Notes: generated from the letters alone by a model not told the origin. Positions 13,040-16,441 are shown, numbered from the stretch's first letter. The stretch: 60,018 nt of DNA from Bacilli bacterium (GCA_047973085.1 JBKEBI010000023.1:1-60018), one strand, 5' to 3'. Numbers and translations: made by a program.

Positions 13040-15916
13040 GTGTATTTGGTTTCAAAGCTTGCTGAAAAATTAATGCAAAAACTAAATAAGCGATACAGGC
13101 TATTTTTTAGCTTGTATTTTTTTATTCTATTATTTAATTTATATTCAACTAAAATTAATACATACGGTTTTGGAAATGTAATTAAATCTAAGCAGAATGA
13201 TGAGCTAGCTACAAATTATATGTATGATAGTAATAACAATTTAGTCAAAGTTATAAAAAGTAATACAACAGTTCAAGAATATAAATATGATAGTATGAAT
13301 AACCCGGTTTATTTTGAAAATACTAATTCAATTACACATAAATATGAGTATGACAAAAGAAATAGACTAGTAGCAGAAATAGAACATGATGGAAGTAAAA
13401 TAGAATTTGAATATGATAATGCAGATAATATTACAAAAGAATTAGCACAAAATTCAAGTAGAGTGCATACATACAATAAAACAGGAAACCTTGTAAAAAC
13501 AGAATATGTAGAACAAGGACAAACATATACTACAGATATCAAATATGATAAATATAATAGAATAGTAGAAGTAGTAGATCCAAATGAAAATAAGGTAAAA
13601 TATAGCTACGATAGTCAAGACAATAGAACTGCACTTACATACAGTGATGGAAGTAGACAAAGCTATGAATACAATGAAAAAGGAATTGTAGTATCTACTA
13701 CAACAAGAGATGATATTGTAATAGAATTTGAATATGATAATAACTATAATCTTACAAATCAAAACTACAGTAATGGAGTAGAAGTAGTAGAAGAGTATGA
13801 TCAAAACAATCAACCAACAAATACAATCTACACAAATGAAGGTAATGTAGTAGAGAGTATCACATATGAATATGATGAAGGTGGACGCTTAGTTCAAAAT
13901 AATCGTGAAGTAGAAGGAAAGACCATAGAAAAGTCATATGAATATGACGAGTTAAATCAACTATCAAGAGCAGAATATAATATTCAAGATGGAATGATAG
14001 ATACAAATATAATCTATGAATATGAATACGATAAATTAAGTAATAGAAGTCTAGAGAAAGTAACAACAGATGGAGAAGTAGAAGTATTTGTAGAAAAAAC
14101 GAACAAAGTAGGACAAATAACATCAAGAAAGAGTGCAGAAGAAGAAATAACATATGAATATGATAAAAATGGAAATTTAGTTGAAGAAGTTTCAAAAGAT
14201 GGTACAATAGAATATGAGTACAATGAATTTGGAAAACTTAGTACAACAACAAAAGATGGACTACGCTATGAAGACTATTATTATGATGGATTTGGAAATA
14301 GAGTAGGGAAAACAAGTTACAGCTACTATGATGAATATAGTGGAGCAAGAAAGGATAACTTGCAAAATCTAGAAGGAGCGCTAACAAAAGCCAAAGATGA
14401 AGGACTTGACTGTAGCAAAGAAGGGTTACAAGACCTAGAAACAGGGCTGACTAGTGATAAGCAATGTGAATTAAACACTACAGCAGGGCTTGGAGTAAAC
14501 AGACTAGAAGTAGAATATGTAAATGATATAGGATATGAAAATGATATAGGATATGAAAATGCACTAGTACTAGAAGTAAAAGAAGAGTCAGAAATATATA
14601 ACACATTCATCTATGAAAAACCACTAACATCAACAATAAATGAAGAAGTGGAAGTAAATGTACTAACAAGAAGTAATACAATAAATGCAAGAATAGGTGA
14701 AGAAGTAGTAGTACATGAATATGCAACAAATGGAGAAGAGTTAGAAGTAGTAAATGATTTTGAGATTGTAAATGAATTAGGATACAATGGAGAAATAGAA
14801 GATAACTTAAATATGCAATATTTAAGAGCAAGATACTACAAACAAGATAGTGCAAGATTCATGAGTGAAGACACATACAGAGGAGAAGTAGGAAGAGGAC
14901 AAAGTCATAATTCATATATCTACACTGAGAACAATCCTGTGGAGTATGTTGATAAGAATGGTGAACAGATTGCAGATCCAGGTGATAGAGGAGGAACTAT
15001 TTATTATGGATCAGGATTTCAGATAGTATCAAATGGAAATGGAACTGTAAGGATAAAATATGCAGATGGACTTGGACTTACTGGAGGTAGAGTAGTATCA
15101 GAAAATGCTCGAAAATGGCTTAAAGATAATGGCTACGACCATTTTGTAAATGGTGGATATTCTAAAAAATCGTATGATGATATAGCAAATGATGCATATA
15201 CAGGAGGAACTATTAGAAAAGAGCCAACAGTTTATGGTGAATTGTATGGGTTATCAACAAATGATAGACTGTTTGTAGAAAAAGCTGTAATGTGTGATAC
15301 ATTAGAGGATAGTGGTTTAACTACTGAGGAAATCAAGTACGCTATTCATGAATATAGCTTGGAAGAATTGCAAAACTTTTTAGATAGTGGTTTAAGCTGG
15401 AGTGTGTGGTTGGATTGGCAGAATTCTAAATCAAGTGGTGGATTTGGTAGTCCTGTGGATTTCTACTATGGATTTGTTGATTCACTTGTAAAAAAAGTTA
15501 GTGATATAGCATCGCTGATAATGTCGCTACCTTACAATGATGTATTTGTAGCAGCTATGACTGCATTAGCTGCATCTTCAGTCGCTATTTATTCAGTAAT
15601 TATTGCAATACAAGCAGCTCCTGGTATAGGACAAGTAATTAGTGCTATAGCTGGAGCAGTAGTAGTAATGTTTGCTGCAAAGGAGCTTATAAAGAGCATA
15701 AATCATGTATATGACATGGGATCATCATTTATGTATGCTGCAGGTTATGTTTCAATAGATATAGTGCTATTAGGTTTATCGATCAAAGCACTTAAGTCTG
15801 CTTTGAGTACCTTAAAAGGAAATGGTAGTGGAACAGGAGGCAGTGCTGTAGATGATGTAGTAGAGAGTGGGAGTAACGTTATAGTAAAAGCTGGTGATGT
15901 TACTCCAAAGGGTTAA
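13040..15916 (+). CDS. Rhs/YD-repeat polymorphic toxin protein (zero-frame product)
   Basis: N-terminal hydrophobic signal-like segment and many YD repeats (YEYD..N..). Rhs core end: RARYYKQDSARFMSEDTY...YIYTENNPVEYVDKNGE (boundary near 14965). A 316-aa C-terminal extension follows. The start may be ATG 13073; no clear RBS at either candidate. Confidence 0.85.
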   Translation: MYLVSKLAEKLMQKLNKRYRLFFSLYFFILLFNLYSTKINTYGFGNVIKSKQNDELATNYMYDSNNNLVKVIKSNTTVQEYKYDSMNNPVYFENTNSITHKYEYDKRNRLVAEIEHDGSKIEFEYDNADNITKELAQNSSRVHTYNKTGNLVKTEYVEQGQTYTTDIKYDKYNRIVEVVDPNENKVKYSYDSQDNRTALTYSDGSRQSYEYNEKGIVVSTTTRDDIVIEFEYDNNYNLTNQNYSNGVEVVEEYDQNNQPTNTIYTNEGNVVESITYEYDEGGRLVQNNREVEGKTIEKSYEYDELNQLSRAEYNIQDGMIDTNIIYEYEYDKLSNRSLEKVTTDGEVEVFVEKTNKVGQITSRKSAEEEITYEYDKNGNLVEEVSKDGTIEYEYNEFGKLSTTTKDGLRYEDYYYDGFGNRVGKTSYSYYDEYSGARKDNLQNLEGALTKAKDEGLDCSKEGLQDLETGLTSDKQCELNTTAGLGVNRLEVEYVNDIGYENDIGYENALVLEVKEESEIYNTFIYEKPLTSTINEEVEVNVLTRSNTINARIGEEVVVHEYATNGEELEVVNDFEIVNELGYNGEIEDNLNMQYLRARYYKQDSARFMSEDTYRGEVGRGQSHNSYIYTENNPVEYVDKNGEQIADPGDRGGTIYYGSGFQIVSNGNGTVRIKYADGLGLTGGRVVSENARKWLKDNGYDHFVNGGYSKKSYDDIANDAYTGGTIRKEPTVYGELYGLSTNDRLFVEKAVMCDTLEDSGLTTEEIKYAIHEYSLEELQNFLDSGLSWSVWLDWQNSKSSGGFGSPVDFYYGFVDSLVKKVSDIASLIMSLPYNDVFVAAMTALAASSVAIYSVIIAIQAAPGIGQVISAIAGAVVVMFAAKELIKSINHVYDMGSSFMYAAGYVSIDIVLLGLSIKALKSALSTLKGNGSGTGGSAVDDVVESGSNVIVKAGDVTPKG

Positions 15917-16185
15917 AGTTCACAAATCATGCAGCAGATAAATTTAATAGCATAGATAACTTAACTACCGGTGCAGTAGATGATATAATTAGTGCTCCTG
16001 AAATAAAAGTATTAGATACTAATACAGGAAACATAAACACCTACAAAATGACCAGTGCATCATCATCAAGTTATACAAGAGTAACTATTCCTTCTGATGG
16101 CGGTAAAAGAATAATATCTGTAGGGTTTAATCCAATGAAAGATATTCAAAAATATATAGATAATGGAAGATTTATTGTAAAATAG
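15898..16185 (+). other. Start-less C-terminal toxin module in the -1 frame relative to the Rhs ORF (frameshifted or recoded toxin tip)
   Basis: The frame is open from 15898 to TAG 16183-16185. It encodes ...GLKFTNHAADKFNSIDNLTTGAVDDIISAPEIKVLDTNTGNINTYKMTSASSSSYTRVTIPSDGGKRIISVGFNPMKDIQKYIDNGRFIVK. No initiation codon or RBS at its 5' end. Confidence 0.6.
15907..15913 (+). other. Candidate -1 slippery heptamer A AAG GGT at the end of the Rhs ORF
   Basis: Zero-frame codons are CCA AAG GGT TAA. The heptamer fits X XXY YYZ. The -1 frame continues TTA AAG TTC... Confidence 0.35.
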
Positions 16186-16198
16186 GGAGGTGAGTAAA

Positions 16199-16441
16199 AT
16201 GGCAGTTTTAACATATGAAAACTTATTAAAATTAATTGAAGATAATCCTGAGTACATTAATTATGATGAGGATATAAGTCCTAAAAGTAATTTAGTTATC
16301 ATTTTTGATGAATCATCAAAATGTAAAAATATCAGTGACTTTTCATTTGCTGAAGGTAGTATTTTAATGGATACAGGTAGTCGTGAAATGATTATAAGTG
16401 GATCAGATAAAGGGACAATTAAATCAATAGAATTTAATTAG
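16199..16441 (+). CDS. Putative cognate immunity protein (80 aa)
   Basis: GGGAGG at 16185-16190 overlaps the toxin-module stop, and ATG lies 8 nt downstream. Small acidic protein in the expected position for an Rhs immunity gene. Confidence 0.55.
   Translation: MAVLTYENLLKLIEDNPEYINYDEDISPKSNLVIIFDESSKCKNISDFSFAEGSILMDTGSREMIISGSDKGTIKSIEFN

Follow-up and report, generated by a model that had tools for sequence, protein, structure and literature searches.

The DNA stretch analysed here, 60,018 nucleotides (nt) from a Bacilli bacterium (GCA_047973085.1, JBKEBI010000023.1:1-60018) and referred to below as the window, carries an Rhs-type polymorphic toxin gene. Its open reading frame (ORF; 13040..15916) ends inside the C-terminal toxin domain, the remainder of which is encoded in the -1 frame and is followed by a putative immunity gene. 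All coordinates are those of the whole window and refer to the + strand unless stated otherwise. The initial annotation had offered two explanations, a recent 1-nt frameshift that inactivated the toxin and programmed recoding that yields a short and a toxin-armed isoform. The first is favoured by the evidence, since relatives carry the domain in frame and the break lies inside a conserved domain. With a probability of about 80%, the locus is explained by a one-base deletion in the toxin domain of a 5'-truncated Rhs gene with a retained immunity gene, and not by programmed frameshifting.

The Rhs-frame ORF ends with CCA AAG GGT TAA. The heptamer AAAGGGT is located at 15907-15913 in the X XXY YYZ phase and the zero-frame TAA comes next (15914-15916), an arrangement that reads CCAAAGGGTTAA. 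From the TTA that begins at 15913 (TTA AAG TTC...), the -1 frame contains 90 sense codons and terminates with a TAG at 16183-16185. Because this frame opens only at 15898, after a TGA at 15895-15897, the switch is confined to the frame overlap 15898-15916. The earliest ATG, GTG or TTG of the -1 frame is ATG 16048, and the toxin tip therefore has no start of its own. The heptamer, the zero-frame stop, the 90-codon run and the absence of a start codon had been described in the initial annotation and were recovered when the sequence was re-read, translated and scanned for starts. The open run is far above chance: within the Rhs ORF, -1-frame stops occur at 0.149 per codon (approximately one every seven codons), the longest other open run is 36 codons, and the probability of 90 open codons arising by chance is approximately 5e-7. 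The heptamer is found at chance frequency, with five copies of AAAGGGT in the window vs 7.8 expected. If a -1 shift occurred, the peptide across the two frames would read ...DVTPKGLKFTNHAADK.

The nature of the break is best judged from the relatives of the toxin domain. An exhaustive phmmer search of 1.84 billion representatives, using the conceptually fused sequence (junction at residue 130/131) as the query, retrieved just 12 homologous clusters with E-values from 5.5e-23 to 2.6e-4, eight of which span both sides of the junction within one ORF. All of them are distant, with at most 50% identity over the full domain and 62% over one fragment. Together they describe a C-terminal domain of ~110 amino acids (aa) with the pattern AGD-x-TP-x-G-[WFYL]-x-[ILF]-T-x-H-A ... 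D-T-x-T-G-N-I-N ... R-[IV]-T-[IV]-P-x-D-G ... R-I-[IV]-S-x-G-F, and the window tip retains every family-invariant residue when aligned with them. The N-terminal 16 residues of the window's domain (SGSNVIVKAGDVTPKG; 15866..15913), which include the AGD-x-TP-x-G motif that forms part of a single ORF in the eight homologues, are read in the Rhs frame, and the C-terminal 90 residues (15913..16185, ending at the TAG), matched by all 12 homologues, in the -1 frame. Where the uninterrupted homologue P0002 reads AGDVTPKGWKLTIHS, the window reads AGDVTPKG|LKFTNHA, the frames switching at the bar: AGDVTPKG belongs to the Rhs frame and LKFTNHAADKF... to the -1 frame. The break falls within the toxin domain, eight residues ahead of the conserved T-x-H-A, and no domain boundary exists at this point.

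At the DNA level, the junction of P0002, encoded on the metagenome contig L001, is GCA GGT GAT GTT ACG CCA AAA GGA TGG, and that of the window GCT GGT GAT GTT ACT CCA AAG GGT TAA; L001 thus shows CCA AAA GGA TGG at the position of the window's CCAAAGGGTTA. The junction is in frame and AAAGGGT is absent in six of six distinct relative loci (L001/2, L003/4/5/12, L006/7, L008, L011 and L013). Adding back one A (or one G) to the window gives CCA AAA GGG TTA AAG and restores the exact length and register of the family. The frame-break site (A AAG GGT plus TAA, 15907..15916) would hence be the product of a 1-nt deletion from an ancestral CCA AAA GGG TTA or CCA AAG GGG TTA. As the most similar junction is CCA AAA GGA, the window most simply lost one A, although the exact base can be named with less assurance than the place of the loss. 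The canonical X XXY YYZ appearance follows from the same event, because a deletion at the border between an A-run and a G-run is bound to leave A AAG GGN in phase.

The fused sequence also behaves as a single structural unit. AlphaFold2 (AF2), applied to the fused 106-aa sequence with a 10-sequence alignment, predicted one compact domain (mean predicted local distance difference test score (pLDDT) 94.3, predicted template modelling score 0.86) with a helix-helix-4 strands-helix topology, and the confidence remains high across the junction, with a pLDDT of 97 at residues 11-20. The absence of the near-invariant RF-x-G from a short loop of the window copy was considered as a second lesion and rejected, as the orphan module L006 shares it, which marks it as a subfamily trait. 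Assignment to a described family was less productive. Neither the 90-aa stretch nor the downstream 80-aa ORF matched Pfam or NCBIfam, so that the proposed profile and structure comparison returned a single confident fold with no above-threshold family for either protein. The resemblance to BECR-fold RNases suggested in the initial annotation is weakly supported: the homologue P0005 matches positions 32-100 of the Pfam profile PBECR3 (PF18812) with 24.6 bits and the model has two helices and four strands, but this score is below the cut-off of 30 bits, the window domain itself has no match to PBECR3- or DUF4258-like profiles, and Foldseek found nothing significant in the PDB (best E = 0.39, with the RelE-like BrnT at rank 13). 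Foldseek matches in BFVD were weak (E = 0.02-0.05), one of them to a phage 'Nuclease'. No PDB sequence matched the domain profile or the pre-toxin region. In word-index searches, the fused 220-aa query retrieved 0 matches and the 116-aa domain one fragment. Pattern scans for the toxin were empty in genome contigs and in viral contigs, and in metagenome contigs returned only L012 (identical to L005) and L013.

Although few, the carriers of the domain are diverse. It is attached to Rhs cores (L001, L013), follows PT-HINT domains (P0006, P0012) and occurs as start-less orphan modules (L006, L011), a distribution that, as far as these contexts can tell, is typical for a polymorphic-toxin tip. The orphan module of L011 comes after an Ntox33/DUF4279 pair, and that of L001 is a member of an array of six Rhs-core fragments. 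On the ENA metagenome contigs L001/L002, positions 865-10229 contain at least six C-terminal fragments of the Rhs core, each followed by a different set of small ORFs. Judging from this layout, the array is one of orphan Rhs-CT/immunity cassettes, among them that of P0002, the closest junction-matching homologue. A separate frame break was observed in L008:156-524 (a contig of GCA_036681025.1), where a relative of the toxin domain is interrupted elsewhere, at TIPA | GAQRIISTGF; either this family member was disrupted independently or its assembly is wrong here.

The gene directly downstream completes the pair. Its ribosome-binding site GGGAGG (16185-16190) overlaps the toxin's TAG (16183-16185), and an ORF starting at ATG 16199 (16199..16441; whole element 16185..16441) encodes an acidic protein of 80 aa with an isoelectric point of 4.2, as had been noted before. 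Homologues of this ORF directly follow the toxin domain elsewhere, which supports the toxin/immunity reading: the ORF after the toxin homologue of L003 is 40% identical (E = 9e-22), that of L006 47% (E = 2e-19), and in L011 an equal-sized (80-aa) ORF directly after the toxin module is 36% identical by alignment only, with no BLAST E-value. The gap between toxin stop and downstream ORF is 8-16 nt in all three. Such pairs in several unrelated contigs bear out two proposals of the initial annotation, namely that the -1 stretch encodes the toxin tip at the C-terminus of Rhs and that the 80-aa ORF is its immunity gene; toxic activity of the domain is presumed. The further likeness to DUF2283 did not hold up, as the window ORF had no Pfam DUF2283 match at E <= 1 and only one of six homologues matched (E = 0.86). 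A single-sequence AF2 model of the immunity protein reached a pLDDT of 46, too poor for a structure search. The toxin domain represents a rare unannotated family, possibly a BECR-type RNase. On balance, the 110-aa domain and the 80-aa protein probably form an undescribed toxin/immunity family that possibly includes a divergent BECR RNase, and that is very rare and shuffled among Rhs, PT-HINT and orphan cassettes.

Immunity genes of Rhs and contact-dependent inhibition (CDI) systems are kept against the toxins of kin. An intact immunity gene with a strong ribosome-binding site fits immunity kept after toxin loss. A promoter-like TTAACT-17-TATAAT with an upstream TG lies inside the tip at 15961-15989, approximately 210 nt before the immunity ATG. 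It could drive the immunity gene independently, but such matches occur at chance frequency in this AT-rich region, and promoter scans likewise gave matches at chance level. The cassette is closed by a terminator-like hairpin with a U-run at 16490..16524 (-13.3 kcal/mol, z = -3.3).

The Rhs gene itself is incomplete at its other end, as revealed by a contig of a sister strain, L014. In a blastn comparison, L014 1647-11565 corresponds to window 3244-13164 with 98.98% identity and L014 18497-20106 to window 13169-14796 with 94.96% identity; L014 ends there, before the tip. The intervening ~6.9 kb (L014:11566-18496), missing from the window, encode a secreted-looking protein of 166 aa and residues 1 to ~2110 of a giant Rhs protein. 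The latter is at least 2646 aa long, begins with a signal peptide and contains DUF6531 and RHS repeats (E = 1e-143), and its gene occupies the same position as the window locus, downstream of holA. The deletion joint (13165..13168), read directly, fuses intergenic DNA to codon ~2111 of the giant Rhs gene, and no repeat is present at it. It is not a repeat-collapse artefact, because the Logan contig L010, assembled from the window's own sample, crosses it at 100% identity. The 5' extension of the ORF (13040..13164, ~42 codons) is former holA-downstream intergenic DNA, near-identical to L014:11441-11565, and contains a terminator-like hairpin at 13092-13118. Its frame is open by chance in both strains, with a stop in L014 four codons past the joint. 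The resulting chimeric N-terminus, derived from T-rich terminator DNA, is hydrophobic and signal-anchor-like (KRYRLFFSLYFFILLF). With regard to sampling, a single close relative of HolA turned up, in two Logan assemblies of which L014 is the longer contig, and a HolA scan of genome contigs was empty; for LepA, a search of 15 billion proteins gave no relative with at least 90% identity, which points to a poorly sampled lineage. The sister strains with the full-length Rhs are represented by runs SRR30247008 and SRR30247007, and the reads of the window's own sample by SRR30067235.

What remains of the Rhs protein is recognizable throughout its repeats. The Rhs/YD-repeat shell remnant (13169..14962) matches Pfam RHS_repeat (PF05593, 1.1e-36) and TIGR01643, aligns with the L014 Rhs protein from residue 2111 onward with 514 of 542 residues identical, and ends with the Rhs-associated core (aa 573-641, nt 14756-14962; TIGR03696 Rhs_assc_core, 7.4e-14). 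The pre-toxin C-terminal region that follows (14963..15865) includes a ~200-aa part of no known family, hydrophobic helices and a Gly/Ser linker. It gave no significant match in Pfam, NCBIfam or PDB sequence searches, and homologues were found neither for query residues 1-96 in the exhaustive phmmer search nor for the 255-aa post-core region in the word-index search. A candidate Ntox33 domain in this region (E = 0.079) was not supported by tblastn against the Ntox33 gene of L011. Thus, repeats and a core precede the toxin as expected of an Rhs protein, and a variable tip with a cognate immunity gene lies downstream, the toxin being split over two frames; the secretion region and a complete shell are lacking. 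The Rhs ORF of the initial annotation ends as stated there but does not represent an intact gene, since its first ~42 codons are intergenic DNA joined by the 6.9-kb deletion. Measured against the sister strain, the window's 958-aa Rhs product is best described as a 5'-deleted remnant without its native start, its export signal and two-thirds of its shell. An 18-nt tandem duplication (14518-14553, DIGYEN DIGYEN) was also observed in the remnant and is not present in L014.

Several observations weigh against a plain one-base deletion. Among the relatives of the tip, identity reaches only 50% for the full domain, or 62% for a fragment, and L014 stops at the window equivalent of 14796. The tip displays no further decay (no stops, invariant residues kept), which is also compatible with a consensus error, or with a frameshift that is tolerated or functional. 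The heptamer belongs to a class that is frameshift-prone in Escherichia coli (PMC4066793) and has the zero-frame stop right after it. GGTGAT, complementary to the anti-Shine-Dalgarno sequence, is located 8 nt upstream, though this stretch codes for the conserved Gly-Asp and L001, which is in frame, has it as well. Finally, the signal-anchor-like chimeric N-terminus may allow the remnant to be expressed.

Part of these points would suit programmed -1 frameshifting at A AAG GGT, by which a short tip-less Rhs protein and a minor toxin-armed isoform would be made. The heptamer sits in zero-frame phase within the frame overlap with the stop immediately next to it, the -1 product has the exact length and register of the family, A_AA.G_GG.U counts as frameshift-prone in E. 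coli (PMC4066793), and the GGTGAT element could act from upstream. In E. coli reporters, AAAGGGU shifted at 0.134% without a stimulator vs a background of 0.055%, at 0.368% with IS911 stimulators and at 1.6% with the IS3 pseudoknot (PMC4066793). However, the 100 nt downstream of the window site fold no better than shuffled sequences (z = +0.34), no relevant Rfam match was obtained, and ~0.1% would be expected without a stimulator. Moreover, the switch lies inside the toxin fold, so that the short product would carry just 16 residues of the domain as a terminal stub. Neither the heptamer nor a frame change at the junction is conserved (0 of 6 relative loci, 0 of 8 junction-spanning proteins, all of them distant). 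With the native start, the signal peptide and two-thirds of the gene lost, there is no intact delivery vehicle whose toxin could be dosed. In the literature library that was searched, no paper ties Rhs polymorphic toxins to ribosomal frameshifting as a mechanism. Programmed recoding, the second proposal of the initial annotation, is therefore highly improbable: the break is within a domain, relatives are in frame without the heptamer, no structure lies downstream and the gene is 5'-deleted. The comparison with orthologous loci speaks against it in part, in that the relatives are in frame with a different nucleotide count but are no closer than 50% over the full domain.

A related scenario combines the deletion with unselected leakiness, whereby spontaneous -1 slippage (~0.1-0.4%) still yields traces of full-length product. 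The reporter values of AAAGGGU in E. coli (PMC4066793) are compatible with such rates, and the strong ribosome-binding site of the intact immunity gene and the undecayed tip would suit it; leakiness could even explain why the immunity gene was retained. Yet the remnant has no export signal and a terminator-like hairpin at its 5' end, so its product would be cytoplasmic and rare. Retention against kin toxins would, in addition, be expected in any case. The scenario is considered very unlikely.

The break could also be a consensus or assembly error, the true sequence having one more A or G at 15907-15912 (CCAAAAGGG or CCAAAGGGG at 15905-15913) and an in-frame toxin, in a gene that would still be a 5'-deleted remnant. 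The wholly undecayed tip would be accounted for, and the break is situated where two 3-nt homopolymers meet. The whole window is one NCBI contig, its lineage is poorly sampled and the genome was possibly assembled from a metagenome; when the Rhs product and the immunity ORF were looked up exactly, each with two alternative starts, no contig covering 15913 was matched. On the other hand, three-base runs are not typical error sites, and Logan contigs that were assembled independently from the window's sample agree with it at 100% over 6.7 kb. ORF tiling and Pfam searches of ten short ORFs, which surveyed the window in part, revealed no other frameshift-type break, the IS3 site aside, and the other disrupted gene carries a substitution (TAG) rather than an indel. 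An error is thus unlikely, and a true mutation is the better supposition.

For a real deletion, the history of the locus can be outlined as follows. The ancestor would have been a very large Sec-exported Rhs/YD-repeat polymorphic toxin at the position downstream of holA, with a C-terminus formed by a small basic toxin domain of ~110 aa, presumably neutralised by the acidic 80-aa protein encoded directly downstream. A 6.9-kb deletion would then have taken the 166-aa gene together with the Rhs start codon, the signal peptide, the DUF6531 region and ~2110 N-terminal residues, joining the remainder in frame to intergenic DNA that is open over a short distance. The loss of one base from the A-run or the G-run of CCA AAA GGG TTA would have placed the last 90 toxin codons in the -1 frame and exposed the TAA; the 5' truncation may precede or follow this event. 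Insertion of an IS3 element ~400 nt downstream would be a further lesion.

The locus can be compared with several known systems. WapA/WapI of Bacillus subtilis and the Rhs-CT/RhsI pairs, said to have been described by Koskiniemi et al. in PNAS in 2013, reportedly include Gram-positive Sec-exported YD-repeat toxins. As in these systems, YD/RHS repeats and an Rhs-associated core precede a toxin that varies at the C-terminus, and directly downstream lies the gene of a small acidic immunity protein, with a ribosome-binding site of its own; the N-terminal signal peptide of WapA has its counterpart in the full-length protein of the sister strain. Unlike WapA/WapI, the toxin domain and the immunity protein belong to no annotated family, and the window copy has lost the N-terminal ~2110 residues and carries a frame break in the toxin domain. 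The rhs elements of E. coli and Salmonella include degraded or orphan loci and orphan toxin-immunity cassettes. The truncated Rhs gene, the retained immunity gene and the adjacent insertion sequence (IS) element resemble the former, and the start-less modules of the toxin relatives after other toxin/immunity pairs (L011, L001) the latter. In contrast to degraded rhs loci, the C-terminal module of the window is still on its own core, and a point deletion inactivated it where recombination would have displaced it. Like dnaX and orfAB of IS3/IS911, the window site combines an overlapping -1 ORF with an X XXY YYZ heptamer that is in phase, but it has no stimulatory hairpin or pseudoknot, no conservation and no domain boundary. 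With PBECR3 and other BECR-fold RNases the toxin shares a small basic domain of predicted helix-helix-four-strand topology, but the profile match is sub-threshold and in one homologue only (24.6 vs 30 bits), with none for the window copy.

The idea that frameshifting controls the dose of a polymorphic toxin is not sustained by this analysis, and what is left is a decaying Rhs locus of an ordinary kind that has kept its immunity gene. The locus nevertheless defines a rare unannotated toxin/immunity pair, and its confidently folding fused sequence is a candidate for toxin-domain catalogues. Furthermore, a homopolymer deletion can automatically create a 'canonical' X XXY YYZ heptamer with a stop right after it, which calls for caution in recoding screens that use sequence only.

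The IS3-family insertion sequence downstream (16839..18221) is bounded by 26-nt inverted repeats and encodes orfA (16886..17344), with helix-turn-helix (HTH) domains, and orfB (frame open 17263..18192), with HTH_21, rve and rve_2. The two overlap by 82 nt, within which the canonical slippery site A AAA AAG is found at 17299-17305. This site, 1.4 kb downstream of the claimed one, is a genuine programmed -1 frameshift. No obvious target-site duplication was detected (flanks ATT / CTC). The element is part of the decay context of the locus and no part of the toxin system.

Other possibly disrupted genes were noticed elsewhere in the window. At 2053-3258, an OpuAA/ProV-type ABC ATPase with a CBS domain contains an in-frame TAG at 2506-2508, across which the Pfam ABC_tran match (positions 2-136) continues; it is probably a nonsense pseudogene. 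The picture of gene decay arises because the Rhs remnant, the downstream IS3 element and this TAG occur together. At 28308-28859, two contiguous same-frame ORFs are split by a TGA at 28563-28565 in the context NRCDY-TGA-ATAR (Cys-x-x-TGA). No Pfam match was obtained for this region and only small hairpins lie downstream; the TGA resembles a CxxU redox motif and could reflect a selenoprotein or a nonsense mutation. Lastly, a TetR-like ORF on the - strand (29612-30124), with TetR_N in its first half, has an in-frame TAA after ~84 codons followed by 85 open codons, and may be a second nonsense-disrupted gene.

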